A stretch of 64,000 nt of DNA from a virus, in IMG/VR virus record IMGVR_UViG_3300045199_000074. The stretch is one strand, 5' to 3'. Made by a program: the position numbers and the translations under genes. Shown here one piece after another: positions 22,670 through 56,837 of the stretch. Numbering within the stretch: position 1 is the stretch's first letter; every line of letters starts with the position of its first letter. A model generated the notes under the pieces. The model had not been told where the DNA came from and searched no databases. It was given only the letters and a program-made list of their open reading frames with translations.

Positions 22670-22738
22670 TCAATTGACTGAGCGCCACCAATTCATCGTT
22701 GCAGTCGAAGCTGCTCTGGTTTTTTCTAATTTGCACAT
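22670..22738 (-). promoter_or_regulatory. Trp leader peptide ORF upstream of trpS (MCKLEKTRAASTATMNWWRSVN*)
   Basis: Tandem TGG TGG codons; alternative ATG at 22696; hairpin cgctca/tgagcg over the stop; structured spacer to trpS. Confidence 0.7.
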
Positions 22739-22778
22739 AAATCACTTATGCCTATTTAATCAGGAAAATGCAAGTGCA

Positions 22779-23243
22779 TTATTCTAGTAAATTATGCCCG
22801 CTGTTTTGAATTTTTTCCGCAATCTCACTTCCTGTCACTGTGAGTGCGTAGGTTGTAATTGATCTAGGGCCTGAAACTCGATCACGTTCTTCCCTTTTCA
22901 CTCGAATTTTATTGATGAGGCCATCCGCGTATAACGACGACAAGTGTGGATAAATCGTTCCTTCTTTTAATCCAGTAGTCTCAGCAATTTTATTCGATGA
23001 CATTGGCTTATGATGAGACAGAAGGGTCAATAATAGCCTGCGTTGTGCTTTTGGCCGCTCAATTGTTTTCGATCCCGCTGCATCTGGCCTGGGTACTCCC
23101 CTCCTTGATGGGCCAGAAACAAAATCAAAACCATGTTTGTTTGCCATGGATTGCAATGAGGCAATTGCCGCAGTGATCTCACTAATGTCGCTCATCGAGA
23201 GCAGATCGAAATCAATTCGCCCTTTGAAATATATCGAAGCCAT
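22779..23243 (-). CDS. Winged-helix DNA-binding protein
   Basis: MSSNKIAETTGLKEGTIYPHLSSLYADGLI...YALT.TG wHTH. Confidence 0.75.
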   Translation of the reverse strand: MASIYFKGRIDFDLLSMSDISEITAAIASLQSMANKHGFDFVSGPSRRGVPRPDAAGSKTIERPKAQRRLLLTLLSHHKPMSSNKIAETTGLKEGTIYPHLSSLYADGLINKIRVKREERDRVSGPRSITTYALTVTGSEIAEKIQNSGHNLLE

Positions 23244-23349
23244 AACCGCTCTCCTTTGCAGGAAGGGCTAAATTATTCAGATGCTGGCGTCAATACAATT
23301 CTTATATAACCTATTGATTCTACTAGATTCTTCGACTCTTTTACTGATT

Positions 23350-23643
23350 TCACCTAAGTCCGAGAAAGAACGATGCATCTGAATAATCTGGTCTTGATGA
23401 CTCCCATTCCCGCCTTAATGCTATCTTTCCATCGGCTTCATGGTCACGGCACACAGCAGCTTTCTTACGACCAGATCCGCTAACAGCAGGAGCAATTTCA
23501 ACTATGCGATCAATTCCATCTACTCGGCAGCATGGGCATCTCATCCGTCCGTGTTTTCGGAGGAAACCATCCCCGACCGGAGTAAACAGCACCTCTTCTG
23601 GGTCTGCAATCGATAAAATTCCGGGCATATCAACCATCTTCAT
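23350..23643 (-). CDS. Hypothetical protein with Cys/His motifs
   Basis: RCPCCR...VCRDH. Confidence 0.55.
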   Translation of the reverse strand: MKMVDMPGILSIADPEEVLFTPVGDGFLRKHGRMRCPCCRVDGIDRIVEIAPAVSGSGRKKAAVCRDHEADGKIALRREWESSRPDYSDASFFLGLR

Positions 23644-23731
23644 TTTCCTATAATGGATTATTTATAGAATAGTTGATAATTCTGGCTTATTACAAATCTT
23701 GCCCGTGAATTTATAGGCAATTAGCGCATGC

Positions 23732-24148
23732 ATGCCAAAGAATTATGGGCTTTGCGGATTTTCGGGTTGGAGGGACCAAAGGTACACACCTTTCATAATC
23801 CTGATTTATCGGTTGCTAGACAAGGGTACATCGTTTATTAAAAACGGACTATCCGGTTGTTTGAAGTTTTTGAACATGGGCCGTCCGCTTGCACAGTTTC
23901 GTGGTTCTTGGGTTTCTCGCGAGGATAAAAAGCTTATGAATTGGTCGAAGCCACTTCTCATTGAAGCCCTCCGAAACATGCCGAGCATTTGCCCTCCGCG
24001 CGTGACCCGGCAGTCGAAGGATTACCTGCGTGGGATCGTAGAGCATGCTCTCTGGGGAAACGATTTCAACAGATCGAATGATGACCCTGTCCGCCTCGCC
24101 ATGCAGCGGGCTATGAAAGATGCTCGTGACGAGTTAGCCCGCCGATAA
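23732..24148 (+). CDS. Hypothetical protein (start uncertain)
   Basis: 138-aa ORF in a locally higher-GC patch. Confidence 0.4.
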   Translation: MPKNYGLCGFSGWRDQRYTPFIILIYRLLDKGTSFIKNGLSGCLKFLNMGRPLAQFRGSWVSREDKKLMNWSKPLLIEALRNMPSICPPRVTRQSKDYLRGIVEHALWGNDFNRSNDDPVRLAMQRAMKDARDELARR

Positions 24149-24196
24149 ATCCCCAACCGTTAACGCCTGTGTCGTATAGGTGCCCTCAACTGATGG

Positions 24197-24412
24197 GTGA
24201 GCATGGCTGATATTCTGGGTATTAAGGGTTTGCTCGTGGACATCGATAAGACTGTCGAGGCGGACATCAACATAACCATTCGATTTAAGCGGAAGTCGAA
24301 TGGGATGACGGCTTGTCCTCGTTGCCGAAACACCTTCATCCGACCAAATGGCTCGCGTCTGGTGACATATCGCGTCTGGGCTCGCGCAGTCGACGCCATA
24401 ATTCTTGGCTAA
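24197..24412 (+). pseudogene. ISL3-like transposase N-terminal zinc-finger remnant
   Basis: ILGIKGL...ACPRC...NGSRLVTYR resembles an ISL3 N-terminus; truncated at 71 aa. Confidence 0.5.
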
Positions 24413-24607
24413 ATGGTACTTTGTTATTTTCCCTATCCAAGGCATTGTTTCTAAATAAGGAAATTTTGTCCTCTGCACTATTAAACTCTTCAGAAGAAGG
24501 AGTAGTGTTTTTGCTCTGACCAAGAAATGTCTTGTTCTGCAACGTCTCCCATCTTTTCTATCAGTAAAGATATCGTATCTGCCAGAATATATCGCTGCCA
24601 CAGTTCT

Positions 24608-24862
24608 TTACTCATCAATCTGGAGTCTGATTTCGGTTGATGAACTTACAGATGTTTCATTCATAATGACGAACATTGCAAATGTACACTTAATAGCTTG
24701 CCTTAATACTGATGGCAGGAGTTCCCCTAAATGAAAGTGTTGCCCCTTATACTGTAAAAAAAGATGGCCACCCTGAATAAGAGCGGCCTCTGGTATTTCT
24801 TGTCCGACATCACAAACGACTGTAAGACGTCCGCCTTCTGTTACAACAACATCACATGCCAC
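24608..24862 (-). CDS. Hypothetical protein
   Basis: GGGG RBS, GTG start, directly downstream of rpsU. Confidence 0.65.
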   Translation of the reverse strand: MACDVVVTEGGRLTVVCDVGQEIPEAALIQGGHLFLQYKGQHFHLGELLPSVLRQAIKCTFAMFVIMNETSVSSSTEIRLQIDE

Positions 24863-24876
24863 GTCGGTACCCCTAT

Positions 24877-25083
24877 TTAGCGGCGAAGGTCCGCTTCATC
24901 CTGCTTGCGACGTTCACGCTGATATCGTCTGACCGCCTCGTTCTTTTCGCGACGTCTCTTTTCCGAAGGTGATTCATAGTACTCACGCTTCCGCAGTTCA
25001 CGGAAAATTCCTTCTGTCTGCATCTTACGCTTAAGAACTCTGATTGCCTTTTCGATCTGATTGTCGCGAACCTTAACTTCCAC
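24877..25083 (-). CDS. rpsU: 30S ribosomal protein bS21
   Basis: [45 protein letters not shown] signature. Confidence 0.93.
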
Positions 25084-25300
25084 TTTATATACCTTTTAAA
25101 ATTAACGGATTTTGGATGATACGTATAATTTACTCATCGGCGCAATAGATCGTCGTATCAAAACCCTGAAATTTTTATTTATCTTCAGGGTATTAATTAA
25201 ATTAGACGATATAAGGAAGCCACCTGCCAAAACAGTTGACATCTTATATCGTCTAAAACAGAATTAATCATAATAATGTATAGTTTTTAAGCCGTTCAAT

Positions 25301-26446: not shown

Positions 26447-26448
26447 GT

Positions 26449-27570: not shown

Positions 27571-27576
27571 GATTTT

Positions 27577-28113: not shown

Positions 28114-28198
28114 GTATTTCTCATGAATTTACAAAATACATGTTCACTGCCAATGGCATGCTTATCAAGCGCCGGTGAAAAGACCAGCGGGTTCTGTT

Positions 28199-29412: not shown

Positions 29413-29478
29413 AACGTCGAATTTCCTAGAAATGGTTGCAGTGTTTAATTCAAGGTAGCATGATGGATGAGAAAATAA

Positions 29479-30084
29479 ATGGTTTCAAGGACGCAGCCCG
29501 TGCAAAATAATATTTTTGAGGTAGACCATCCTTATATTCCTCCAGCTAAATTCCGTTCATTGCTCGGAAAAATAGTCTGGAACACATTTGCATGCGATGA
29601 ATTGTCTGGTTGGAAAAATGGCGAAATAATTCGCCCTTTGCCAGACGACAGTGATGTGCCTTTGCTTTATGATTTTCCTACAACACATCAATCGATTTTA
29701 CCTGGTGATTGGGTTATCTCACTGATTTCGGCGATTGATCAGGCATTGCCTCCGGTTGAGCTTTTACTCGATTGTCTTGAAATCGATAGTCTCACAATTC
29801 GTCCTTATGCCCCAGCGTTCCGAATACCTGCATCACCGTCTACTGAGGCTTCCGCTCATTGTCTGATTGTGTCTCGTATTTTGATAGCTTGTCGTGAAGA
29901 ATTAATCCCGCCCTCGTTCATGACAATGGAACATATTGTCAATTGTCTCGAAACTGTTAGTAATCTCGCTGTTATGTTGGGCGGGGAAGAAGCTTTTCTG
30001 CAAGCAATGGCATTGATACAAGACATAGATACTTTTGCTATTACCAATCAAGAAATATTTGAGGATTTAGTTGATGTGCAATAA
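29479..30084 (+). CDS. Hypothetical protein
   Basis: 201-aa ORF overlapping the next start. Confidence 0.65.
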   Translation: MVSRTQPVQNNIFEVDHPYIPPAKFRSLLGKIVWNTFACDELSGWKNGEIIRPLPDDSDVPLLYDFPTTHQSILPGDWVISLISAIDQALPPVELLLDCLEIDSLTIRPYAPAFRIPASPSTEASAHCLIVSRILIACREELIPPSFMTMEHIVNCLETVSNLAVMLGGEEAFLQAMALIQDIDTFAITNQEIFEDLVDVQ

Positions 30085-31111
30085 ATACAGACGTTCCTTT
30101 TTAATTGGCGCTGCTGCATGCTTACTAACTTCGACCTCACTTGCGCAAGATGCTGAAAACTCACCTTTGATTATTAGAGAGCATATTCCAGGTGTCGACC
30201 CGAGATATGCCAGGTATGCAACTCAAGGTCCATTCGTTTTTTCGGCTTCACCAACGACGGTGAAAGGTCGTGGATTTGATTACATGGTCTTCTTTCCACG
30301 TAACCATCCAAATCCCCGTTTGATTGTTTTTAGTCATGGGGCTGTGGCTGAGCCGCTTGCTTACCGTGATCTTCTTTGGCACTGGGCTAGCCATGGTTTT
30401 GTCGTTGTCGCCCCGCTTCATCGTGATTCAATTATTGAAAATGGTCCGTCATTGAGGAAAACGTCGGTAAACAGCTATTCTGAATGGAACATCTCAGCAT
30501 TGCTGGAAGATCCTGTTGCATGGCAAGAGAGAGCAGAAGCGTGTGTTAGTGTTCTTGATGACGTAAAACTTGTCGAAGATGCTATCGGTCAAACTGTTAA
30601 TGTTGAACGTCCTATTATTGTGGGTCACGGCTACGGTGCTTATGTAGCCCAGATGTTGCTTGGTGCTTCCGTGAGAGATGGTGATAATAAGCGCCGTACT
30701 TTTACTGAACCTCGTTTTTTTGCGGGCATACTGATGTCACCGCAGGGTCCAGGAGTTATGGGTTTAGATGAAAATTCCTGGGCAGATATAAATGCACCCT
30801 TGCTCTATTTGTTAGCAGAGCGGGAGGATGATTTTACAGGGCAGCCTTATACCGAGAAGGCGAAATCCTACAAATTATCCAAACCTGGATATAAGCATAT
30901 TGGGTTGCTCAAAAACGGTAGTGCTAATTCATTTTCTGGACAGGTCGCCAGATCCAATCCTACTGAGAAAAAATTATTCGAAGTCTTAAAGGCATTCTCG
31001 ACTGCTTTTCTGCTCGCATATGGTGATTACGAGAAACAGGCATTCCAGGATATGACGACTAATTTCTTTGAAAGGATGTCACTTGGTGTTGTCGATGAGG
31101 GCAGGAGATGA
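30071..31111 (+). CDS. Exported alpha/beta-hydrolase-fold protein with Gly at the nucleophile position
   Basis: IVFSHG...WASHGFVVVAPLH; nucleophile elbow GHGYG instead of GHSxG. Confidence 0.8.
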   Translation: MMCNKYRRSFLIGAAACLLTSTSLAQDAENSPLIIREHIPGVDPRYARYATQGPFVFSASPTTVKGRGFDYMVFFPRNHPNPRLIVFSHGAVAEPLAYRDLLWHWASHGFVVVAPLHRDSIIENGPSLRKTSVNSYSEWNISALLEDPVAWQERAEACVSVLDDVKLVEDAIGQTVNVERPIIVGHGYGAYVAQMLLGASVRDGDNKRRTFTEPRFFAGILMSPQGPGVMGLDENSWADINAPLLYLLAEREDDFTGQPYTEKAKSYKLSKPGYKHIGLLKNGSANSFSGQVARSNPTEKKLFEVLKAFSTAFLLAYGDYEKQAFQDMTTNFFERMSLGVVDEGRR

Positions 31112-31148
31112 CAGTGATGATCGGATTTCGAAACTCTAAACCTGAAAG

Positions 31149-31223
31149 TGGATGCCGGGGCGCGACTCGAACGCGCATTATGTAACTTCAAAGGCTCATG
31201 TCCTACCATTAGACGACCCGGCA
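31149..31223 (-). tRNA. tRNA-Gln(TTG), atypical (U discriminator, bulged anticodon stem)
   Basis: U1-A72 acceptor tgccggg/cccggca, loop ctTTGaa, T-loop ttcgagt, encoded CCA. Confidence 0.7.
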
Positions 31224-31258
31224 AGGTTTTAGTCGTCTAATGGTGATTAGACAACTGC

Positions 31259-31498
31259 TTATGCGACGTTTTGTTGTTGTCGCGCAGCTGTGATTAATTC
31301 GTTGTGTTTTCTAATATAGCGCATAAGCATCATGCCTTTTTCTTCTGCCTCAAACGTGGCGTCGCCCATATCAGAAAACGGCACAGGGAATTCAAAGCCA
31401 AGAGCAGTTTTATACCAAAGATTATCTGCTCGCGCGCAAACTAATTTGCACGGGCCTGCAGTAATGTGTTCTTTGATATTGATTGGCATATTGCTCAT
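31259..31498 (-). CDS. Conserved phage-type hypothetical protein inside the tRNA operon
   Basis: NLWYKTALGFEFPVPFSDMGDATFEAEEK...MRYIRKH; GAGG RBS. Confidence 0.75.
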   Translation of the reverse strand: MSNMPINIKEHITAGPCKLVCARADNLWYKTALGFEFPVPFSDMGDATFEAEEKGMMLMRYIRKHNELITAARQQQNVA

Positions 31499-31523
31499 TT
31501 GGTTGGTCCTCTATGTTTATTTC

Positions 31524-31611
31524 TGGCGGAACCGAGAAGATTCGAACTTCTGAGACCTTTCGGCCTGCTCGCTTTCCAAGCGAGTGCATTAGACCACTCT
31601 GCCACGGTTCC
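31524..31611 (-). tRNA. tRNA-Ser(GGA)
   Basis: Class II cloverleaf, ctcgc-ttGGAaa-gcgag, CCA. Confidence 0.95.
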
Positions 31612-31637
31612 GTATTCATTGCATTTTTTTTAAAACA

Positions 31638-31712
31638 TGGCTGGGACGGGAGGATTCGAACCTCCGAATGTCGGTACCAAAAACCGATGCCTTACCGCTT
31701 GGCGACGTCCCA
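31638..31712 (-). tRNA. tRNA-Gln(TTG)
   Basis: tgggacg/cgtccca acceptor, loop ttTTGgt, CCA. Confidence 0.95.
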
Positions 31713-31729
31713 GTATATTTTTTAAATTC

Positions 31730-31803
31730 TGGCTGGGCATCCTGGATTCGAACCAAGACTAACGGATTCAGAGTCCGCTGTTCTACCTTTAAACTAATCC
31801 CCA
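31730..31803 (-). tRNA. tRNA-Gln(CTG)
   Basis: gcgga-ctCTGaa-tccgt, T-loop ttcgaat, CCA. Confidence 0.93.
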
Positions 31804-31809
31804 GTATTC

Positions 31810-31899
31810 TGGCGGAAAGAGAGAGATTTGAACTCTCGAAGCCTTTCGGCTTGCTCGCTTTCGAGGCGAGTGCATTCAACCTGGCTCTGCCATCTTTCC
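31810..31899 (-). tRNA. tRNA-Ser(CGA)
   Basis: ctcgc-ctCGAaa-gcgag, long variable arm, CCA. Confidence 0.93.
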
Positions 31900-31934
31900 A
31901 ATTATTTGGCTATTATAGCCATTATCTCCTATAA

Positions 31935-32138
31935 TTATTGCAGCGCTTTAAATACTGCTTCTTGCACTACGTGACGACTTACTGCACCGTTAAGCTTCTT
32001 CATCGTCTGACCGACGAACCATCCGCGTAAGGCAGATCGTTCTTTTGCTTGCTGAGCCTTGTTATTATGGGTTTTTACTAGGGCCATGACAGTTGCTTCT
32101 ACGACATCAGCCGGAGCATTTAATTCATGTACTGTCAT
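31935..32138 (-). CDS. Stand-alone GatB/YqeY C-terminal (tail) domain-like protein
   Basis: GGGAGA RBS; LRGWFVGQTMKKLNGAVSRHVVQEAV resembles the GatB tail G(F/W)FVGQVMK motif. Confidence 0.65.
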   Translation of the reverse strand: MTVHELNAPADVVEATVMALVKTHNNKAQQAKERSALRGWFVGQTMKKLNGAVSRHVVQEAVFKALQ

Positions 32139-32173
32139 GGCCCATCTCCCATAAATAAACAAACTCAATATAT

Positions 32174-32263
32174 TGGCGGAAAGGGTGGGATTCGAACCCA
32201 CGGTACGGTTTCCCGCACGCTGGTTTTCAAGACCAGAGCCATCAACCACTCGGCCACCTTTCC
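32174..32263 (-). tRNA. tRNA-Ser(TGA)
   Basis: ctggt-ctTGAaa-accag, long variable arm, CCA. Confidence 0.95.
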
Positions 32264-32305
32264 GTATTATTTTTGAACTCCCTACGGATAGGAAATTCGA
32301 ATTCG

Positions 32306-32397
32306 TGGCGGAAACAGGGAGATTCGAACTCCCGAGGGCATTTTACCTCCCTGACGGTTTAGCAAACCGCTGCTTTAAGCCTCTCAGCCATGTTTCC
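32306..32397 (-). tRNA. tRNA-Ser(GCT)
   Basis: gcggt-ttGCTaa-accgt, long variable arm, CCA. Confidence 0.95.
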
Positions 32398-32403
32398 ACA
32401 CAT

Positions 32404-32430
32404 AAAAAACCCGCCTTTTAGGCGGGTTCT
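32404..32430 (-). terminator. Attenuator terminator upstream of the Ser/Gln tRNA operon
   Basis: agaacccgcc-taaaa-ggcgggtttttt ending 6 nt before tRNA-Ser(GCT). Confidence 0.9.
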
Positions 32431-32455
32431 GAAACCTTTTGATCTGATATGGAGG

Positions 32456-32548
32456 TCAGATATTTAGGTCAGTCACCGCGCACATCAACGCATTCGAGCT
32501 TGATGAACTCGATTGTCTTGATTGCTGTTGGGATGACTGAATAAACAT
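32456..32548 (-). CDS. Ser/Gln leader peptide MFIQSSQQQSRQSSSSSSNALMCAVTDLNI*
   Basis: GGAGA RBS 6 nt upstream; 14 of codons 4-18 are Ser (9) or Gln (5). Confidence 0.85.
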   Translation of the reverse strand: MFIQSSQQQSRQSSSSSSNALMCAVTDLNI

Positions 32549-32572
32549 TTTTAATCTCCGTGATCTTCATTT

Positions 32573-32601
32573 AAGATGAAGTATGTATTTACCAATGTCA
32601 A
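32573..32601 (-). promoter_or_regulatory. Sigma70-like promoter of the Ser/Gln operon
   Basis: TTGACA-N17-CATCTT. Confidence 0.6.
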
Positions 32602-32619
32602 CGGGTATTTTTATATTTT

Positions 32620-33492
32620 TTACATTTTTATTTCCGGACTGTTGGCGTCGATCTCAACATCGCTGGATGCAGTATTATTTATGAGATGTGGTTTCGTTAG
32701 AATTGCTGCATTAAAAATGGCTAATCCTCCGACTGATCGATCATAAACGCCATCGATTCCTCTCTTTCGGGCCTGCAGATCGAAATCGTCTCTACCGATG
32801 ATAGACACTAGCCCGCTTTCTATCCATTTTTGATTGTCCTTATGATTTCTCAAGTCGAGTATCAAGGCCCCTTCTTTGATTGTGGTGACGATAACGGCTC
32901 CACCATTTTCGTCATCTGAAAATTCCGCATAGTTTGAGATTGCCAGTTCCACATCGTCAGCCACATAAAATGCGCGTCCAAAATAGCCTGTTCCAATAGA
33001 TGGTTTGATACCGTAATTCAGGATGTCTTCCGCATTTTCATTCGATGTCCCGTGATAAACTTCCCTACACGACCATCCAATTGCTCCTGAAGGAACTCCG
33101 TCATTCGGGCTGAGGGAGGCCAGCAAGATTGCTTGTTTGACGACATCAACATCGTCCCAAGTGAGATTTCCGCCGATGGAAGGTCCGCTGTCACTTGTAA
33201 GTTTTGGGAACTTATCCAATACATGTGGTAATAGCTGCATTGTGTGTGGATCAACGTAAGTGCCATGCGGCCCGTCTATTTTTACCTCGACGGTTTCGTA
33301 ATCCTCCAATGTATCCAGTTTTCGTTTTGGGCTACATTGATATCCGTACTTGTCGGCCTGGATCGATAATGACCATCCGTGATCCCACTTAATGGATGGG
33401 AATAAACGGCCGTCTTCTTCGGTTCTTTTAGTCATAAGCTCAAACTCGTAGTTTTCATGCTTCAAAATATGGAATAGTAATGAAACAATCAA
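32620..33492 (-). CDS. Two-domain hypothetical protein with a C-terminal PARP/ART-like (H-Y) domain
   Basis: VYHGTS...GYFGRAFYVADD...A..Y motif. Confidence 0.55.
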   Translation of the reverse strand: MIVSLLFHILKHENYEFELMTKRTEEDGRLFPSIKWDHGWSLSIQADKYGYQCSPKRKLDTLEDYETVEVKIDGPHGTYVDPHTMQLLPHVLDKFPKLTSDSGPSIGGNLTWDDVDVVKQAILLASLSPNDGVPSGAIGWSCREVYHGTSNENAEDILNYGIKPSIGTGYFGRAFYVADDVELAISNYAEFSDDENGGAVIVTTIKEGALILDLRNHKDNQKWIESGLVSIIGRDDFDLQARKRGIDGVYDRSVGGLAIFNAAILTKPHLINNTASSDVEIDANSPEIKM

Positions 33493-33525
33493 TCAGCATT
33501 AGTTGGTTCGATTTGGTCAGTTCGA

Positions 33526-33861
33526 ATGCGACCACAGAAAGAGAGTTTTATAAAAATGACGACTGGAAGATCTAAACTTGCTGCCGAAATTAAAGATTTC
33601 ATTGAAAAGCACGCAAACATTTCACCAAATTACGACCCTGAACACGATGATCCAGAAGATAGATTTACTGGACCTGATGCGTCTTTGATGAACCAGGCTG
33701 CCTTGGCATTAGAAGAAGACCTTGAATTCACTTATGTGCATTCTGACTGGGGGTCCGGTTGCTACTCTCCATATGGTGATAAGCAGGCGCGTGCTTGGCA
33801 CGATGACCTTAAACAGCGCGCCAATGACCTTCGGCTATCTCCTAAGCCTTCACTGCGCTAA
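33526..33861 (+). CDS. Hypothetical protein
   Basis: 111-aa ORF. Confidence 0.65.
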   Translation: MRPQKESFIKMTTGRSKLAAEIKDFIEKHANISPNYDPEHDDPEDRFTGPDASLMNQAALALEEDLEFTYVHSDWGSGCYSPYGDKQARAWHDDLKQRANDLRLSPKPSLR

Positions 33862-34785
33862 CTTATTTGCGGTATCCAGCACATAGGACGCCGCAGTATT
33901 AAAATTGGAGAACGTTTTGAAGGCTGTGTAATCCTTAGGAGGGACACCGAGCTTAGGAGACGAGTCCCCTCCATTTTGAGGGCCGTAGAGCCACAACCAG
34001 AGATTGGCATCGGTAATCGAACCTTGAGGATTGGTTCGTCCGCCACCATTACCACCAGCGCCCATCGAACAATTCTGTCCGTCAGGTATGCGTGCATCAC
34101 GTTGTATTCGCTCTATATCGATTGAGCTATTCTGCTTTATGATTGGATAGCATCCATATTCTCTTCTCAGTCTGTCTGATGTTTCTTCTTTCCAAAGGTC
34201 CATTAGAATGCGCTCTCCGGTGCCAGCGGCCCAATATGCGGATGCCTTTCCTGTCATTGAGGCTATTTGTCTGGAAGACGAGCGCACGCGACCTGGCAGG
34301 AATTTGTAATCACCGCCCATGAGTGAAAGTCCAAGAGTAGCAAATGCTACAGCTCTATTCTCTTCCTGATCTGATAATGCAGTGTCAAGACAATGAGCAG
34401 CATGATATAGAAGAAGCCAGCTTGCAGTTTCGGCGCTCGACGGCAAGTCATAAATAGTCGGCAATGGGGAGCCATAAGAATCTGCAATGAAATTTGGATC
34501 TATATTTGAGATGGGAGGCAGCAGCGCGCATACGCGTCGCGTTCCTTTTCCGTCGAAATCATATTCGATAATATGCGACATACCCATTAATTCAGTGTTA
34601 GACGTCATAAAGCGAACATGTTCACTGCACCAATTTTGTTTTGTTTTTTCACATAAAATTGCGGCGGTTCTAGCCCAGAATTCTGCTGGATCGTCACGAC
34701 GTTCGAGAATGGCAATCTGAACACCTGATACACTTTCCAATGCTGTAATAAAAGCGAAGGCGGCTGTTGGTAAATCTATTGCCAT
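33850..34785 (-). CDS. Hypothetical protein with a degenerate zincin-like motif (YHAAHC)
   Basis: GGAG RBS; 311 aa. Confidence 0.7.
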   Translation of the reverse strand: MAIDLPTAAFAFITALESVSGVQIAILERRDDPAEFWARTAAILCEKTKQNWCSEHVRFMTSNTELMGMSHIIEYDFDGKGTRRVCALLPPISNIDPNFIADSYGSPLPTIYDLPSSAETASWLLLYHAAHCLDTALSDQEENRAVAFATLGLSLMGGDYKFLPGRVRSSSRQIASMTGKASAYWAAGTGERILMDLWKEETSDRLRREYGCYPIIKQNSSIDIERIQRDARIPDGQNCSMGAGGNGGGRTNPQGSITDANLWLWLYGPQNGGDSSPKLGVPPKDYTAFKTFSNFNTAASYVLDTANKLAQ

Positions 34786-34923
34786 CGAAAAACTCCAATA
34801 TTTTGTCTAATGATAGTGGCGTTATATGCTCGAAACCAACACTTTTATTGCCGAATGAGGGAAAGGCTTTTTTGTTACGTGATTTTATTTTTAAAAATAA
34901 TAATAAAAAAGTGAAAAATCGTA

Positions 34924-34952
34924 TTGACAGTTTCTTCGACCTAATGCATTTA
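34924..34952 (+). promoter_or_regulatory. Sigma70-like promoter of the Leu/Pro/His/Tyr operon
   Basis: TTGACA-N17-CATTTA. Confidence 0.6.
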
Positions 34953-34996
34953 TGGATAACACGACGAATTCACGTCGCCAATTTGAGGATAGTGAA

Positions 34997-35164
34997 ATGA
35001 CAACATCGGCACATACAGTACAGGGAAAGGTTGCGGCAGTTTCTGCTCGCGTCGCCCTGTCTCGTGCCTTGTCGGCACTACCTCATCTCCCACATTTGTT
35101 ACCACTCCCGTATTTGGGATGTGGTCAGCGGGCTGTATTGGCGACTGAAGGATACGCAAATTAA
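34997..35164 (+). CDS. Leu/Pro/His/Tyr leader peptide (55 aa; control run LPHLPHLLPLPYL at 35078-35116)
   Basis: GAGGA RBS 7 nt upstream of the ATG at 34997; 13 consecutive Leu/Pro/His/Tyr codons. Confidence 0.85.
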   Translation: MTTSAHTVQGKVAAVSARVALSRALSALPHLPHLLPLPYLGCGQRAVLATEGYAN

Positions 35165-35183
35165 GTAATCCTTCAATCCAACC

Positions 35184-35230
35184 AAGAAGAAACCCTCGCT
35201 GGCCACAAGCTACCGAGGGTTTCTTCTTTT
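35184..35230 (+). terminator. Attenuator terminator upstream of tRNA cluster 2
   Basis: Perfect 15-bp stem aagaagaaaccctcg / cgagggtttcttctt followed by tt. Confidence 0.9.
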
Positions 35231-35370
35231 GTGCGTCTGTATTTCCTCGTTAGAGGGTTCTGTTTATAACAGAATGATCTTTGAAATTGTGAGCAAGAAC
35301 AGTGCAAGCTGGCTTTGGATGTTGTGGCCGTCACCGCGATATTCTTTGGTGAGCTAGTTTGCGAAGAATT

Positions 35371-35454
35371 GGAGGGTTGCCCGAGAGGCCGAACGGGACG
35401 GACTGTAAATCCGTTGAGAAATCCGCGTTGGTTCGAATCCAACACCCTTCACCA
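35371..35454 (+). tRNA. tRNA-Tyr(GTA)
   Basis: acgga-ctGTAaa-tccgt, CCA. Confidence 0.95.
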
Positions 35455-35461
35455 ATTAAAT

Positions 35462-35544
35462 GTGGCAGTGGCGGAATAGGTAGACGCGGTGGATTCAAAA
35501 TCCATTGGGAAACCGTGAGAGTTCGAGTCTCTCCTGCCGCACCA
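35462..35544 (+). tRNA. tRNA-Leu(CAA)
   Basis: gtgga-ttCAAaa-tccat, CCA. Confidence 0.95.
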
Positions 35545-35622
35545 AAATGAATGTATCCGTCTGGGTTTAGAGTATTTAAATATTCAACCCAGACGGAGAA
35601 GAGAAAATGTAATCCGATCTTT

Positions 35623-35699
35623 CGGAGTGTAGCGCAGTCTGGTAGCGCACCTGCCTTGGGAGCAGGGGGTCGCAGGTTCGAATCCTGCCGTTCCGACCA
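35623..35699 (+). tRNA. tRNA-Pro(TGG)
   Basis: cctgc-ctTGGga-gcagg, C1 start, CCA. Confidence 0.95.
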
Positions 35700-35729
35700 T
35701 CGGATTACATTTTCTCTTCGGAGAAATAT

Positions 35730-35812
35730 GCGGTTATGGCGAAATTGGTAGACGCACCAGATTTAGGTTCTGGCGGGAAACCGTGGGGGTTCGAGTCCCT
35801 CTAACCGTACCA
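35730..35812 (+). tRNA. tRNA-Leu(TAG)
   Basis: ccaga-ttTAGgt-tctgg, CCA. Confidence 0.95.
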
Positions 35813-35828
35813 TCTTTTAATACTAATT

Positions 35829-36049
35829 GGGGATGCTCGCCTGGATTCGGTGTGGGCAGTTGCAAAAAACGTAGAACGCGACCGGGGTAAAACCCGGTCT
35901 TCGAAATATCTCAAGCACACGAGTTGTGGATGCACCGAAATAGCCAGAGAGGGCCGAGTAGGGAAGCGCGTTTCTCAAGCATTGAGGTAGCCTGTGGTAA
36001 TGCTCAGGTCCGAAGACAATCGCCGGTTCGAACCCGGTCATCTCCACCA
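35829..36049 (+). ncRNA. Short one-piece tmRNA-like RNA (221 nt)
   Basis: GGGGATG/CATCTCC acceptor with G3-U70, A discriminator and CCA; ctGGATTCG near the 5' end; T arm ccgg-ttcgaac-ccgg; long irregular helix 2. Confidence 0.7.
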
Positions 36050-36054
36050 TTTTC

Positions 36055-36146
36055 GGGGGACGCCAATAAGGATGGGCGGTTCTGTCACTCGGTTGTAACC
36101 CGAGTCCCTATGCGGCAAGCAGTTCAAATCTAGCCGTCCCCCACCA
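36055..36146 (+). ncRNA. Non-canonical tRNA-like RNA A (8-bp acceptor, GTA loop)
   Basis: gggggacg/cgtccccc + ACCA; actcgg-ttGTAac-ccgagt; T-loop ttcaaat. Confidence 0.65.
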
Positions 36147-36154
36147 TTTCGCAC

Positions 36155-36244
36155 GGGGAGTGCGTTAAGAAGGGTATGACAACCCTGGCAGGCCGTACAC
36201 CTGTCCCCTAGTGGCTACGGTAAAAATCCGTCCACTCCCCACCA
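36155..36244 (+). ncRNA. Non-canonical tRNA-like RNA B (8-bp acceptor, GTA loop, degenerate T-loop)
   Basis: ggggagtg/cactcccc + ACCA; gcagg-ccGTAca-cctgt; acgg-taaaaat-ccgt. Confidence 0.65.
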
Positions 36245-36310
36245 AATTTAAACTAACGGGCCGAGACCTGCTGCCTTAAGTGGCGCTGCTCGGCCCGTGA
36301 ACGAAGAATT

Positions 36311-36387
36311 CGGAGTATAGCGCAGCCTGGTAGCGCGATGGTTTTGGGAACCATAGGTCGCAGGTTCGAAGCCTGCTACTCCGACCA
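36311..36387 (+). tRNA. tRNA-Pro(TGG), second copy
   Basis: atggt-ttTGGga-accat, CCA. Confidence 0.93.
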
Positions 36388-36394
36388 ACTAAAT

Positions 36395-36498
36395 GGCAGG
36401 GCCCTGACGTATCCTAGGTAACATTCGTCGGAGTCGGCGTACTAATCAAAGATTACGGATTGATCATCCGCTGAGATCAAGTGCCTGTCCTGCCACCA
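36395..36498 (+). ncRNA. Unknown structured RNA with an 8-bp terminal stem and 3' ACCA
   Basis: ggcagggc/gtcctgcc + ACCA; internal hairpins; no T-loop or D-loop consensus. Confidence 0.5.
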
Positions 36499-36541
36499 GT
36501 TTCGGGCTATTCCTTAGAAAGATTAGCTAGTCATTAAACGT

Positions 36542-36616
36542 GCCGTAGTAGCTCAATGGTTAGAGCGCTGGATTGTGGCTCCAGAGACGGTGGTTCGACT
36601 CCACCCTTCGGTTCCA
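36542..36616 (+). tRNA. tRNA-His(GTG)
   Basis: ctgga-ttGTGgc-tccag, CCA; no encoded G-1; U at the discriminator. Confidence 0.9.
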
Positions 36617-36657
36617 ATACATATGAGTATCCGCTATAGATAAATCAGCGGAAATGT

Positions 36658-36741
36658 GCGGCTGTGGTGGAATGGCAGACACGCAGCGTTGAGGTCGCTG
36701 TGGGGTAACCCGTGGAAGTTCGAATCTTCTCAGCCGCACCA
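36658..36741 (+). tRNA. tRNA-Leu(GAG)
   Basis: cagcg-ttGAGgt-cgctg, CCA. Confidence 0.95.
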
Positions 36742-36784
36742 AGAAACAACAAAACACTATATATCATGTTCCTATTATTAGTTT

Positions 36785-36868
36785 GTGGGCTTGGCGAAAT
36801 TGGTAGACGCGCCGGACTTAAAATGCGGTTCTTAATGAGTACGAGTTCGATCCTCGTAGCCCACACCA
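36785..36868 (+). tRNA. tRNA-Leu(TAA)
   Basis: Loop ctTAAaa, class II, CCA; one anticodon-stem mismatch. Confidence 0.9.
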
Positions 36869-36885
36869 CTATTAACCCTTCAAAT

Positions 36886-36980
36886 GCGGCCGTGGCGGAA
36901 TTTAGTATACGCGCTGGGTTCAGGTCCCAGTGGAGAGCTTGCAACTCTCTGTGCAGGTGCAAGTCCTGCCGTCCGCACCA
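36886..36980 (+). tRNA. tRNA-Leu(CAG), atypical T-loop (tgcaagt)
   Basis: ctggg-ttCAGgt-cccag, long variable arm, CCA. Confidence 0.88.
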
Positions 36981-37020
36981 GATTTTAAACTGTTCTTGTT
37001 TTCATAATTTCATGCTGATG

Positions 37021-37110
37021 TAAAGGCCGCCTTGGTTTGTCCCCCTATGCCTTGGTATGGGCATTTCGTTGCGTTTGATTTGTCTCATCCTTAAAACCGA
37101 GAGAATCTAG
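37021..37110. repeat. Diverged repeat, copy 1 (copy 2 at 56880-56958)
   Basis: Shared gccgcct..tttgtccc..gccttg.tat.ggcatt.cgttgcgtttgattt.tct and gagaatcta. Confidence 0.8.
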
Positions 37111-37143
37111 GCGAGAAACCAAGGTGAACTTTCACATTTTCAA

Positions 37144-37458
37144 ATGATTTTATATTTCTCAACCACGGGCAATCGCGGCATTTTAAAACATTTAACTGAA
37201 CGAGTTATCAAAAGGGAAACATTGAGCGTCGAGCAACTTCGCCAATTGAAGGACATCGAGATACAATTAACAGAATGGATCGAGATTGAGAAAGAATATG
37301 GTCATGGAGCTTCATTGAATTTGCTAAACACGGAAGAAATTGAAAAGCTGGTCTCTATTGAGGGGGAAAAACCGTATTTTAAAGATTATATAAAAAATGC
37401 TGAACGCTACAGGGCTATTATGGGTGATAGCTGGCTTTGGCTTGCAAATGGTAAGTAA
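37144..37458 (+). CDS. Hypothetical protein
   Basis: 104-aa ORF. Confidence 0.6.
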   Translation: MILYFSTTGNRGILKHLTERVIKRETLSVEQLRQLKDIEIQLTEWIEIEKEYGHGASLNLLNTEEIEKLVSIEGEKPYFKDYIKNAERYRAIMGDSWLWLANGK

Positions 37459-37525
37459 ATGTAATTTTATTGATTTTGGCAGCATTATAGCTTAATTTTG
37501 ATGTTATAAATAAACTGTCATTAGT

Positions 37526-37723
37526 ATGATATCAGCACTTTTAAACGAGACTATTGATCCTGCTACGGCACAACTTCTTGACGTTATATCGCAAGATATG
37601 GATAAAAATCCTGATACTTCGGCGATTGTCATCCCAAAATCCTTGATTGAACGAGCTGTAATTTTAACGACTGGCATAGCTGTTGATCTCGATGATGAGA
37701 TCATAGGAGACGTTTCAATTTGA
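37526..37723 (+). CDS. PrlF/SohA antitoxin C-terminal-domain-like small protein
   Basis: DPATAQLLDVISQDM...GIAVDLDDEIIGDVSI resembles the PrlF toxin-binding tail; no AbrB domain. Confidence 0.55.
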   Translation: MISALLNETIDPATAQLLDVISQDMDKNPDTSAIVIPKSLIERAVILTTGIAVDLDDEIIGDVSI

Positions 37724-37783
37724 TAATTGCAGGTAATGAAAGCATATTATTTTTCTGACAACAAATTCAACTCGGAGCCATTT

Positions 37784-38071
37784 ATGTCTGATATTAGCAA
37801 ATCTCTCTATGAACGTCTGATTGATGCAGGCTGTGAAACCGAAAGCTGGCAGAGCGATCTGTATGTTCGTAATACAGAAACTGCGTCACAAATTATTCAC
37901 GCCTTTGAAGCCGAAGGTGGTATCAGCAACAAGCGTAATTTCACAAGTGACCGCGACGGTCAGAGTTGGATTGAACTTCCTTTCAGCTTTAAACCATATT
38001 GGGACGCAAAAAGCCGTGAGGAATTAGCGTCAGATATCGCGGAAGATACCCCTACTACACCAAGAATGTAA
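37784..38071 (+). CDS. Hypothetical protein (phage/plasmid-type)
   Basis: GGAG RBS before MSDISK; SDLYV...DG..WIELPF..P.W. Confidence 0.75.
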   Translation: MSDISKSLYERLIDAGCETESWQSDLYVRNTETASQIIHAFEAEGGISNKRNFTSDRDGQSWIELPFSFKPYWDAKSREELASDIAEDTPTTPRM

Positions 38072-41984: not shown

Positions 41985-41996
41985 TATAGATACCCG

Positions 41997-45815: not shown

Positions 45816-45848
45816 TTCAGAATTTAACTCCTCACTACCAGTAAAGCC

Positions 45849-47379: not shown

Positions 47380-47448
47380 TCCTTTTTGTGTCTTGCCTTT
47401 ATTCTTAATAGTCTGAAGGAGACGTCATTAATAAATAGAGTGAATTGT

Positions 47449-53858: not shown

Positions 53859-53880
53859 ATTATACGCATTAGAAGATAAT

Positions 53881-54657: not shown

Positions 54658-54659
54658 TA

Positions 54660-54878
54660 TTAATACCTTTTTACGCGACGAGGCAGTTCATCTAGTTCCT
54701 GGCATATTACACATCGAGTGCAATTAGGCATAGCGTTGCGTCGTTTTTCTGGAATCTCATTACCACATTCGATGCAATAAATATCTTCAGGTTCAAATTT
54801 CAATTCACGTTTAATAGTTAGAATACCCTTTTGAATACGTGCAAATTCAATGTCACTCGCGCGATCTGCATCATCCAT
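54660..54878 (-). CDS. TraR/DksA C4-type zinc-finger protein
   Basis: MDDADRA (DxxDxA) and CIECG..IP..RR.AMP.C.RCV.CQ; GGAG RBS. Confidence 0.9.
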   Translation of the reverse strand: MDDADRASDIEFARIQKGILTIKRELKFEPEDIYCIECGNEIPEKRRNAMPNCTRCVICQELDELPRRVKRY

Positions 54879-55161
54879 ATTTATTCTCCAAAATCCTATC
54901 TTAATTTGTTTAATTCCAACGCTTGGATGGGCTGGAACTTATGTCTTAAATAAAGGTTGGTCAATTAAAAAATACATATTAATTGTGAATTTGAAAAATT
55001 GTCGCACTCAGAGAATAATTATCTGGCATTAATTCAGGTATTTATATATGCGATTTATTAATTAAATGCCCGTATTTATGTCTTTGCAACGGTGACAACC
55101 AAAATTGACAACGTTTGCTATGCGCTTCACAATAAATAATAAGCTATTAAATAGGTGATTT

Positions 55162-55410
55162 ATGCGCGCGGTCATAATTGCATTTTCGTTGTCTTCTATT
55201 GTCCTTAGTGGGTGTGGATTTTCAAACCACAAGCAAAATCATTTAGGATTGGTTGTAGCCCCTCATGGTGTCAGTGTAGACAGTGCAAAGTCATCCAATC
55301 CCGCACCTATCGCATTAACGTCAGGTACGTCATGGAAGCGATCTTGGTCTAAAAAGCAGGCAGAAACAAAAAGTATCGATAAAGATGCTCCATATAATTC
55401 CTTGGACTGA
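55162..55410 (+). CDS. Small putative lipoprotein
   Basis: Lipobox LSGC; AGGTG RBS. Confidence 0.7.
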   Translation: MRAVIIAFSLSSIVLSGCGFSNHKQNHLGLVVAPHGVSVDSAKSSNPAPIALTSGTSWKRSWSKKQAETKSIDKDAPYNSLD

Positions 55411-55491
55411 AATTATGTAGACTTCAATGGTGGATGACTTATGCAGCCACTTCCTTCATGGTGGGCTAACCCATTCCTTGGAATATGATTT

Positions 55492-56106
55492 ATGGCTGAG
55501 ATGTCTACCGATTTTATTTTCACTGCACCATTTCGCTTCAACTGGGCGGCCGTTAAGGACCTGAACAAAATTATTGTTCACCCCGACCCATCAGAAGACG
55601 ACTTGTTCAACGCTAACTTTTCTCCAGATCATCTGGAGGCACTTGGATATAACATTCCAGAAGATGATCACAGTGCCTACCTTTTTTCCGTCTCCGCTTT
55701 TAAAGAAGCAGTGAAATACTCCGAATGGAAACACATCTTCGAACCGGAACTCCCTGTATTCTGGCCGTGTGTTCCGATGAAGGATAATCAAGCAACGGCT
55801 AATGCAATCTATGAAGCCGGATTAAATTGTGTTTTGATATCTGGAAACATCGATGACGTAACGAGCATATCTGGTTTTGCATTAACAGCCGGTGGAACCG
55901 ATCTTTCTGATCATCTTGCTGCAGCATATTTGTGTAGTGGAAATATACCTCCGGTAACTGTTACACAGAGAGCTATGGCTCTTAACAGGCCGATAAAAAT
56001 GGAAGATGAACTAAAAATAGCGGCTGATACGACTGGTAAATTTCTGAATTTAACAGTCGACCGTTTAAATGAAGCTTTACGTGTCAATAAAGGTCCTCGT
56101 CTTTAA
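55492..56106 (+). CDS. Hypothetical protein
   Basis: 204-aa ORF. Confidence 0.7.
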   Translation: MAEMSTDFIFTAPFRFNWAAVKDLNKIIVHPDPSEDDLFNANFSPDHLEALGYNIPEDDHSAYLFSVSAFKEAVKYSEWKHIFEPELPVFWPCVPMKDNQATANAIYEAGLNCVLISGNIDDVTSISGFALTAGGTDLSDHLAAAYLCSGNIPPVTVTQRAMALNRPIKMEDELKIAADTTGKFLNLTVDRLNEALRVNKGPRL

Positions 56107-56111
56107 TCGGG

Positions 56112-56139
56112 TTGACTATTTCTTTTAAAACTATATAAA
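56112..56139 (+). promoter_or_regulatory. Sigma70-like promoter upstream of Arg/Phe leader 1
   Basis: TTGACT-N16-TATAAA. Confidence 0.55.
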
Positions 56140-56163
56140 TTTGTGTCTGTAAAAGGGAATAAT

Positions 56164-56250
56164 ATGTCTGTTTATTTGATCAATCGTCGGCGATTTAGTG
56201 TTGTTGGACATCCGGTGGGATGGCTTCCAAAGCGCTTGCGCATGACATGA
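56164..56250 (+). CDS. Arg/Phe leader peptide 1 MSVYLINRRRFSVVGHPVGWLPKRLRMT*
   Basis: AAGGGA RBS; CGT CGG CGA TTT run and later CGC x2; followed by a terminator. Confidence 0.7.
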   Translation: MSVYLINRRRFSVVGHPVGWLPKRLRMT

Positions 56251-56273
56251 TCTAGACAGATCACTGTTTAAGC

Positions 56274-56319
56274 AAAGGCTGGGGCTTCTGCCGGAAGGTG
56301 TGAGGCCTCAGCCTTTTTT
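56274..56319 (+). terminator. Terminator after Arg/Phe leader 1
   Basis: 15-bp stem aaaggctggggcttc / gaggcctcagccttt followed by ttt. Confidence 0.85.
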
Positions 56320-56343
56320 ATTGTCTGAAACTTGGAGAATGAT

Positions 56344-56454
56344 ATGCGACGACGACGGCGATTAAAGGTTCGATTTATAACCCAACATGCTGACTTTATT
56401 AACTTGGGATACCGTTTCCTGAGGCGATATTTTACACCTGTTGTTTATTCCTAA
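56344..56454 (+). CDS. Arg/Phe-rich leader-like ORF 2 MRRRRRLKVRFITQHADFINLGYRFLRRYFTPVVYS*
   Basis: GGAG RBS 6 nt upstream; CGA CGA CGA CGG CGA; 9 Arg and 4 Phe in 36 aa. Confidence 0.7.
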   Translation: MRRRRRLKVRFITQHADFINLGYRFLRRYFTPVVYS

Positions 56455-56490
56455 CTTATTGAAATAATTCACGTTTTTGTATTTTTATAG

Positions 56491-56518
56491 TTGACGCCGT
56501 TATTTCTTTGTGTAATAT
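56491..56518 (+). promoter_or_regulatory. Possible internal promoter directly upstream of tRNA-Phe
   Basis: TTGACG-N16-TAATAT. Confidence 0.45.
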
Positions 56519-56551
56519 TTAAATCATCGAAAGAACGAAAGAGCTTTCTTA

Positions 56552-56627
56552 GCCATTGTAGCTCAGTTGGTAGAGCACCGCACTGAAGATGCGGGTGTCG
56601 GCGGTTCGAATCCGCCCGATGGCACCA
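56552..56627 (+). tRNA. tRNA-Phe(GAA)
   Basis: ccgca-ctGAAga-tgcgg, 76 nt, CCA. Confidence 0.96.
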
Positions 56628-56679
56628 GATCTTTCCTTTTGGTTTTTGGACGTTTCCAAGGCGTCCTTAAATTAAGATT

Positions 56680-56757
56680 GCGTTTGTAGCTCAGCCGGAA
56701 AAGAGCGTCGGTCTACGAAACCGAAGGTCACAGGTTCGAATCCTGTCAAACGCACCA
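56680..56757 (+). tRNA. tRNA-Arg(ACG)
   Basis: tcggt-ctACGaa-accga, CCA. Confidence 0.96.
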
Positions 56758-56760
56758 TTT

Positions 56761-56837
56761 GCGACTGTAGCTCAATGGACAGAGCATCTCGCTCCGAACG
56801 GGAAGGTAGGTGAGTTCGAATCTCCTCAGTCGCACCA
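56761..56837 (+). tRNA. tRNA-Arg(CCG)
   Basis: tctcg-ctCCGaa-cggga, CCA. Confidence 0.95.

Follow-up and report, generated by a model that had tools for sequence, protein, structure and literature searches.

In the current analysis we have examined three clusters of tRNA genes, and the short leader regions that precede them, in a stretch of 64,000 nucleotides filed as the IMG/VR virus record IMGVR_UViG_3300045199_000074. The whole of this stretch is referred to here as the window. ARAGORN identifies 19 tRNA genes in the three clusters and all 19 have been confirmed by Rfam. A scan of the whole window with Rfam gave nothing besides these 19 tRNAs; no leader family (Trp, His, Leu, Thr, Phe) is found at the gathering score, nor is any T-box. 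Each of the three clusters is preceded by a promoter of the TTGAC type, a Shine-Dalgarno sequence of the GGAG type situated 6-9 nt 5' of the leader ATG, a short open reading frame (ORF) and a strong hairpin followed by a run of T (Table 1). This succession had been proposed in an earlier reading of the letters alone, called here the sequence-only reading, and each of its parts has been located by direct reading and by computation.

Table 1. Leaders, associated signals and tRNA clusters of the window
Feature	Coordinates	Strand	Remarks
trpS leader ORF	22670..22738	-	Upstream of trpS; ends Trp-Trp-Arg-Ser-Val-Asn
tRNA cluster Ser-GCT, Ser-TGA, Ser-CGA, Gln-CTG, Gln-TTG, Ser-GGA, Gln-TTG	31149..32397	-	ARAGORN, Rfam
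Ser/Gln intrinsic terminator	32404..32430	-	11-bp stem and T run; ends 6 nt before tRNA-Ser(GCT)
Ser/Gln leader ORF, 30 codons	32456..32548	-	Read directly; ORF kept in 18 distinct sequences (alignment A2)
Region 2 of Ser/Gln attenuator, GCGCGG core	32474..32483	-	Pairs with terminator 5' arm
Hairpin within Ser codon run	32494..32512	-	RNAalifold consensus
Promoter of Ser/Gln unit	32573..32601	-	TTGACA, 17 nt, CATCTT; after AT-rich tract; same layout in relatives
Promoter of Leu/Pro/His/Tyr unit	34924..34952	+	TTGACA, 17 nt, CATTTA; after very AT-rich tract
Leu/Pro/His/Tyr leader ORF, 55 codons	34997..35164	+	12 distinct homologues (alignment A3)
Control run of Leu/Pro/His/Tyr leader, 13 codons (28-40)	35078-35116	+	Leu, Pro, His, Tyr codons
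Regions 1 and 2 of Leu unit	35101..35132	+	Control codons ACCACTCCC pair with GGGATGTGGT; region 2 extends as GGTCAGCGGG
Intrinsic terminator of Leu unit	35185..35230	+	Folds
Region 3 of Leu unit	35195..35204	+	Part of terminator 5' arm and loop; pairs with region 2 (antiterminator)
tRNA cluster Tyr, Leu-CAA, Pro, Leu-TAG, Pro, His, Leu-GAG, Leu-TAA, Leu-CAG	35371..36980	+	ARAGORN, Rfam
Promoter P1 of Phe/Arg unit	56112..56140	+	TTGACT, 17 nt, TATAAA
Phe/Arg leader 1, 28 codons	56164..56250	+	Conserved in four elements
Intrinsic terminator of leader 1	56274..56319	+	5' arm can alternatively pair with 56209-56228
Phe/Arg second ORF	56344..56454	+	Opens with five Arg codons (CGA x4, CGG)
Promoter P2, AT-rich UP-like tract	56458..56525	+	ATTGAAATAATT ... 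TTGACG, 16-17 nt, TAATAT; directly 5' of tRNA-Phe
tRNA cluster Phe-GAA, Arg-ACG, Arg-CCG	56552..56837	+	ARAGORN, Rfam

Every leader in the window contains at least one codon cognate to each anticodon of its own cluster. Fourteen of the codons 4-18 of the Ser/Gln leader specify Ser or Gln, with a single Arg interrupting, and the codons used are TCA, TCC, TCG, AGT, AGC, CAA and CAG. The control codons CGT CGG CGA TTT of the Phe/Arg leader 1 (56185-56196) require all three tRNA species of that cluster. The second ORF of this unit is conserved only at its start and is not followed by a terminator.

The matching has been compared with chance using the largest number of cognate codons in any stop-free run of 12 codons, in any frame, against a background of every 700-nt tile on either strand of the window. 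The Ser/Gln leader scores 11 of 12 and the Leu/Pro/His/Tyr leader also 11; in both cases the score is equalled only by tiles containing the leader itself and P is at its floor (0.008). The upstream region of the Arg/Phe cluster scores 7 (P ~0.03), driven by the second ORF, and the codon run of leader 1 is short and by itself not significant. Off-diagonal scores, those of a leader against the codons of another cluster, are ordinary. The sequence-only reading had proposed that each codon run belongs to its own cluster and not to the others; the Ser/Gln and Leu/Pro/His/Tyr leaders are the unique maxima of cognate-codon density in the 64 kb.

A protein of 311 residues (33850-34785), encoded between the two central clusters, has served as a marker for related loci. 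Homologues of it occur in Rhizobium, Sinorhizobium, Agrobacterium, Neorhizobium and many metagenomes, and an identical copy is recorded in 217 blocks of the sequence collection. The loci fetched with the marker alignment always have the Leu/Pro/His/Tyr cluster on one flank and the Ser/Gln cluster on the other. They include Mesorhizobium sp. SP-1A (89% identity of the marker), Pararhizobium sp. BT-229 (51%) and the 1.3-Mb plasmid pRlX5 of R. leguminosarum TP16 (49%), along with loci from 21 metagenomic contigs. Leader ORFs and their ribosome-binding sites are conserved in 18 distinct sequences of the Ser type, 12 of the Leu type and 10 of the Trp type. The ORF, its frame, the Shine-Dalgarno sequence and the position of the stop codon are kept across 44-66% G+C, and the leaders persist as ORFs between elements at ~50% protein identity. 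A megaplasmid of Methylorubrum extorquens AM1 encodes a homologue of the marker and has been set aside, as it carries 6 tRNAs only and no such arrays.

When the full records of the three complete relatives (SP-1A, BT-229 and pRlX5) are scanned for tRNAs, each is seen to have seven clusters grouped by amino acid, namely Ser/Gln; Leu/Pro/His/Tyr; Phe/Arg(CGN); Trp/Thr(ACR)/Cys/Arg(AGA); Lys; Glu/Asp; and a large cluster for Asn/Val/Gly/Ala/Met/Ile/Thr(ACY). A short ORF and a terminator stand before every cluster of the seven types, the content of the ORF tracking that of the cluster. Leaders of the Trp group are rich in Trp, Thr, Cys and Arg, those of the large cluster in Ala, Ile, Asn, Thr, Val, Met and Gly, and the Glu/Asp leaders contain GAA, GAA, GAG, GAC and GAT. 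The sequence-only reading had predicted leaders before further tRNA clusters of the replicon, and a matched leader does stand before each of the Trp/Thr/Cys/Arg-AGA, Glu/Asp, Lys and Asn/Val/Gly/Ala/Met/Ile/Thr clusters. With gyrB as a neighbouring marker, seven further elements have been identified, one of them from Agrobacterium rubi, and in all seven a Trp/Thr/Cys/Arg leader precedes Trp-CCA, Thr-CGT, Thr-TGT, Cys-GCA and Arg-TCT. Counted over the whole comparison, the metagenomic contigs with this design number about 25. The gyrB neighbourhood of Sulfitobacter has no tRNAs and was set aside.

The clusters hold 2-16 tRNA genes each and are spread over more than 100 kb. They thus fall outside the definition of a tRNA array unit or L-array, which comprises at least 20 tRNA genes at a density of at least 2 per kb in one block (PMC4758250). 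A pair of Gln-TTG genes lies far from the main element of pRlX5 (820346-820497; L020), with a short ORF containing Gln-Arg-Gln-Gln upstream and no clear terminator.

The seven leaders have been permuted over the seven clusters in the three complete elements, giving 5040 assignments in each. With best-window counts the true assignment is the sole one of the 5040 to reach the observed score, in three of three elements. When anticodon coverage is scored instead, the true assignment is unique in two elements, and in Pararhizobium two of the 5040 assignments reach its score. Coverage of the anticodons of the own cluster is complete in 21 of the 24 leader-cluster cases. In Mesorhizobium sp. SP-1A the tRNA genes of the host occur singly or in pairs, with no cognate runs upstream of them.

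The leaders have also been found to co-vary with the anticodon content of the clusters, a check suggested in the sequence-only reading; the computational checks suggested there have all had the outcome that it predicted. The Thr and Arg tRNAs are divided between clusters and the leader codons follow this division. Trp-type leaders, which precede Thr-CGT and Thr-TGT, have 36 ACR against 9 ACY codons for Thr (hand tally over ten elements), and the leaders before the Thr-GGT cluster have ACC as their only Thr codon. In the same way the Arg codons in the control runs of Trp-type leaders, before Arg-TCT, are mostly AGA or AGG, two leaders having CGA as well, and the Phe/Arg leaders before Arg-ACG and Arg-CCG use CGN. 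Two variants of the Leu-type leader (L025-27 and L029) lack a His codon and precede a cluster which lacks tRNA-His even at a permissive ARAGORN threshold; His codons and tRNA-His are both present in the nine other distinct leaders of this type. The Lys cluster of pRlX5 is the only Lys cluster that also includes Arg-CCT, and its leader alone has an AGG codon.

The RNAs of the Ser/Gln and Leu-type leaders fold far better than their shuffles (z of -5.9 and -8.9), and their minimum free energy (MFE) folds keep the terminator intact. In the Leu type, GGTCAGCGGG (35123-35132), located just 3' of the control run, is complementary to 35195-35204. All 120 of the 120 cells of this 10-bp antiterminator helix are paired in the 12 sequences of alignment A3, and at two pairs both sides have changed (AU to GC in three sequences and GC to AU in one). 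Sliding the partner by 1-3 columns lowers the pairing to 22-52%. Several of the covarying bases lie in the loop of the terminator and are unconstrained by the terminator itself. The MFE fold also contains a 1:2 stem, in which the control codons 35101-35109 pair with 35116-35125 and overlap region 2; its lower part has AT changed to GC in seven relatives.

The hairpin within the Ser codon run shows compensatory changes from AU to CG in five sequences and from CG to UA in two, even at the cost of Ser codons. When the 3' arm of the terminator is withheld, the GCGCGG region 2 of the Ser type pairs with the 5' arm in 17 of the 17 sequences folded, with lineage-specific extensions of up to 12 bp. 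For the Ser-type antiterminator and the upper 1:2 stem of the Leu type the MAFFT columns are too shifted for counting and the basis is per-sequence folds; the antiterminators of the Ser and all other non-Leu types are known from folds alone. An alternative pairing of the terminator 5' arm is found in folds of the other five leader types too, and in Phe/Arg leader 1, 17 of the 19 bases of the 5' arm are paired once the 3' arm is withheld. The alternatives of terminator and antiterminator on which the proposal of attenuation depends are thus conserved, with compensatory changes.

The units therefore combine a leader ORF and its ribosome-binding site with a run of cognate codons (weak for Lys), an intrinsic terminator and an antiterminator. 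The genes that follow are tRNA genes and not the genes of amino-acid biosynthesis, transport or tRNA synthetases usual behind an attenuator; the trpS leader alone conforms to that pattern. On the strength of this anatomy, its conservation, the match of codons to anticodons and the covarying alternative helices, we consider it probable that the units are ribosome-mediated (leader-peptide) transcription attenuators placed before tRNA clusters. That the leaders are translated, the direction in which the switch works and its physiological trigger are what we infer from the arrangement of the sequence.

The promoter would drive a short translated ORF whose control run has at least one codon for each tRNA species downstream. 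When the control codons are decoded fast, the ribosome would continue across region 2 as far as the stop codon; the terminator (3:4) would then form and the polymerase would halt before the tRNA genes. When any of the cognate charged tRNAs is scarce, the ribosome would stall within the control run and leave region 2 free to pair with the 5' arm of the terminator as a 2:3 antiterminator, and transcription would enter the tRNA genes. The loop would be one of autogenous negative feedback on decoding capacity, since the products are the very molecules sensed, with one loop for each group of amino acids. At the Ser/Gln and Leu/Pro/His/Tyr clusters the attenuator would be the sole visible gate; at the Phe/Arg cluster it would top up a basal supply from P2.

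The last of these distinctions follows from promoters downstream of the terminators. A promoter with a 45-nt AT-rich upstream tract is situated between the terminator and the first tRNA in the Phe/Arg, Glu/Asp, Lys and large clusters, and is conserved in 13 of the 13 cases from four elements, even at 60% G+C. A second ORF, which starts with codons for charged residues, lies between terminator and promoter in the Phe/Arg, Glu/Asp and large types and not in the Lys type. Part of the supply of these clusters therefore bypasses the attenuator, whose contribution there can be no more than extra read-through transcripts or an action on the second ORF. Only 6-10 nt separate the terminator from the first tRNA in the Ser/Gln units (about 15-25 nt with spacer insertions), and about 20-30 nt in units of the Trp type, so that no promoter fits. 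The spacer of the Leu type, of 130-400 nt, has a conserved TTTGACAT motif with no -10 partner at 16-18 nt (spacers read by eye). Promoters 3' of the terminators had been named in the sequence-only reading as a finding that would speak against it, and they are present for the Arg/Phe cluster and for three types outside the window, with no room for them in the Ser/Gln and Trp-type units. The Arg/Phe leaders do precede their cluster as it had stated, with the correction that the promoter-like element at 56458-56525 intervenes before tRNA-Phe.

These promoters give the best hold to a different explanation, in which leader and terminator are self-contained small genes for trans-acting RNAs or peptides, comparable to rnTrpL and peTrpL, and the tRNAs are constitutive from promoters of their own. 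The promoters of the 13 cases and the TTTGACAT motif 3' of the Leu-type terminator are consistent with it, and trans-acting products of attenuators have precedent (PMC6614838, PMC7298713). We nevertheless regard this explanation as unlikely: the Ser/Gln and Trp-type units offer no space for such a promoter, the TTTGACAT motif lacks its partner, and a role in trans leaves unexplained why each leader should list the exact anticodons of the adjacent cluster.

A somewhat less probable alternative reverses the logic of the switch. Efficient translation of the leader would then be needed for read-through, either by keeping Rho off or through a terminating ribosome that melts the terminator, and tRNA synthesis would be coupled positively to translation capacity. 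The second ORFs, with five Arg codons or runs of Asp/Glu after the start and no terminator behind them, could act through Rho. The stop codon of the Ser type, however, stands constantly 24-34 nt before the terminator, which is too distant for melting by a terminating ribosome, and stop codons lie inside or after region 2 as in attenuators of the trp type. Folds at full length keep the terminator, and a ribosome placed on the control codons leads to the antiterminator. That the codon runs are chance or compositional by-products beside ordinary terminators of upstream genes can practically be dismissed: the runs of the Lys leaders and of Phe/Arg leader 1 are indeed short (2-4 codons) and not significant by themselves, and some host tRNA genes too have terminators upstream, but this explanation is already contradicted by the conservation of ORF, frame, Shine-Dalgarno sequence and stop position over 44-66% G+C, by the leaders that are unique maxima in 64 kb, by a true assignment that is one in 5040 in three elements and by the host tRNA genes of the same genome, which have no such runs.

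Several observations weigh against attenuation of the tRNA clusters as set out above. In the Lys leaders the cognate codons number two or three, placed about a conserved AAA/AAG-CGA-AAA, and do not rise above background, and a Glu/Asp cluster of Pararhizobium includes tRNA-Asn behind a leader with no Asn codon. The loci compared are related, so that counts of sequences overstate the number of independent events. A strong downstream promoter is present in four of the seven cluster types, the Phe/Arg type of the window included. The only runs found to contain this DNA, four ant metatranscriptomes consisting of assembled contigs, give flat cover over it, which speaks neither for nor against termination. 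Attenuators read charged tRNA, so that amino-acid starvation would open them as well, a response with no obvious sense for tRNA genes.

The element also encodes a tryptophanyl-tRNA synthetase, trpS (21534-22541), which belongs to the Pfam family tRNA-synt_1b. A leader with paired Trp codons had been claimed for it as well; the ORF has been found, with a Shine-Dalgarno sequence of the GGAG type and an upstream promoter of the TTGAC type, and its WWRS and stop are conserved in three relatives. Between this leader and trpS (22541-22670, minus strand; also L042-L044) a conserved GGACCGTTCC...GGTCC structure is observed and no clear terminator with a T run. For want of such a terminator, the leader may act on translation or by another route. 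No leader has been seen in the region 5' of the gene for ribosomal protein S21 of the element.

The window has a G+C content of 44% and lies within a metagenomic contig of 1.0 Mb, and ant metatranscriptomes contain the same DNA. Proteins encoded in it include GyrA, an integrase, a lytic transglycosylase, TrpRS, two cytosine methylases, a PARP-like protein, a ClpB-like ATPase, a helicase of the Strawberry-notch type, a PcfJ-like protein, UmuC, an SRAP peptidase and ribosomal protein S21. A megablast search of 30000-38000 against plasmid and phage collections gave tRNA-sized matches only. No relative was found in viral contigs scanned with the marker-protein alignment, and PHROGs matches are absent for nine of ten unknown window proteins. 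A phage origin is thus unsupported, and the window is therefore treated as part of a large non-phage mobile element or accessory-replicon region. The related element of Mesorhizobium sp. SP-1A has a G+C content of 51% as against 64.5% at a chromosomal locus, and the Pararhizobium and Rhizobium elements are at ~61%.

The element family has its own gyrB, without the insert domain of the host GyrB, together with gyrA (window 480-3227; L005, L009, L019, L068-L074). Genes for pentapeptide-repeat, bactofilin, thioredoxin, T5orf172 and cytosine-methylase proteins are found in their neighbourhood. Relative to gyrB, the tRNA unit of the Trp type is in all cases either divergent or one gene away.

Additional features have been noted in and around the tRNA clusters. 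A small ORF between two Ser tRNAs (31935-32249, minus strand; also L001 12618-12851) has a weak match to the GatB/YqeY domain on record. ARAGORN run at a permissive threshold adds non-canonical Tyr(GTA)-like tRNA genes in or before the Leu-type clusters (window ~35951-36045 and 36157-36244), as well as in the upstream spacers of L029, L030, L032 and L036. A (C)TTTGA(C/A)AT(C/T)G motif is kept 3' of the Leu-type terminators (window 35270-35300; spacers of L003, L014, L029 and L032) and occurs also 3' of P2 in the large cluster (L008, L011, L016), without a recognisable -10. Another motif, of the GACGACGAC(G)G type, recurs after terminators (window 56344-56454; second ORFs of L007, L008, L012, L016 and L017) and just 5' of the leader ATG in L013, L019 and L073. 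In the Phe/Arg units its frame gives Arg-Arg-Arg, and in those of the large cluster and of Glu/Asp it gives Asp-Asp-Asp; because the frames differ, it may act at the level of RNA or DNA rather than as codons.

Taking the relatives together, we lean, with less assurance than for the attenuators themselves, towards the view that a family of large mobile elements or accessory replicons of the Hyphomicrobiales carries a complete self-regulating decoding kit. It would comprise seven tRNA operons, each held in check by a translated list of the anticodons it encodes, through which the ribosome would gauge every isoacceptor and order replacements. This would represent a general and unpublished principle of tRNA homeostasis, plausibly of use in foreign hosts or against tRNA-cleaving defence toxins. 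Textbook attenuation applied to tRNA genes would become a codon-resolved autogenous control of decoding capacity. The system offers a direct means of testing how mobile elements and phages manage in hosts whose tRNA pools do not suit them, or against defences that target tRNA. The attenuators would be compact natural sensors of the supply of individual tRNAs, usable as reporters, and the set of seven units, with its splits of Thr and Arg isoacceptors, is a natural experiment on which codons are rate-limiting.

Transcription of bacterial tRNA genes is generally described as governed by growth rate and the stringent response, and we know of no description, nor have we found one, of isoacceptor-specific feedback on it. 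Papers of the 1980s on pheU and pheV of E. coli may mention leader-like sequences upstream of a tRNA-Phe gene. Searches of the full-text literature, including a survey of attenuators (PMC2965389), returned no report of leader-peptide control of tRNA genes.

The multivalent attenuators of enterobacteria (thrL and ilvL of ilvGMEDA; also trpL, hisL, leuL and pheL) have the same promoter, ORF with regulatory codons, mutually exclusive 1:2, 2:3 and 3:4 helices and intrinsic terminator, and, as here, several amino acids are sensed by one leader. The leader pheM before pheST likewise has a part of the translation apparatus, a synthetase, as its target. Unlike these, the units described here have tRNA genes and not enzymes as targets, their control run lists every isoacceptor downstream, at the level of codons rather than amino acids, and the product is itself the molecule sensed. 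A ribosome-dependent attenuator of the alphaproteobacteria is likewise known in trpL of Sinorhizobium meliloti (rnTrpL, peTrpL), and the trpS leader of the element, ending in Trp-Trp-Arg, resembles peptides of the trpL type. The target of the S. meliloti attenuator is trpE(G), and both the RNA and the peptide of this attenuator are active in trans (PMC6614838, PMC7298713).

T-box riboswitches also use a codon-like specifier to sense the state of one specific tRNA, and likewise switch between terminator and antiterminator; they differ in binding uncharged tRNA directly and free of translation, in controlling synthetase and amino-acid genes and in occurring mostly in Firmicutes. The nearest functional analogue is the trn operon of Anabaena sp. 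PCC 7120, a long tRNA array on a megaplasmid that is normally silent and is induced when translation is impaired (PMC8421152). It is, as here, a horizontally acquired supernumerary set of tRNAs on an accessory replicon. It is regulated at the level of the promoter, by direct repeats together with the repressor TrcR, and no leader, attenuation or terminator is mentioned for it (PMC8421152, PMC10272220). Anabaena thus has one operon answering to a global signal, whereas seven separately gated units with codon-specific sensing are proposed here. The best-supported reading of the units remains that of a known mechanism on a new target, with tRNA genes as the regulated genes, a checklist of isoacceptors as the sensor and a closed feedback loop.

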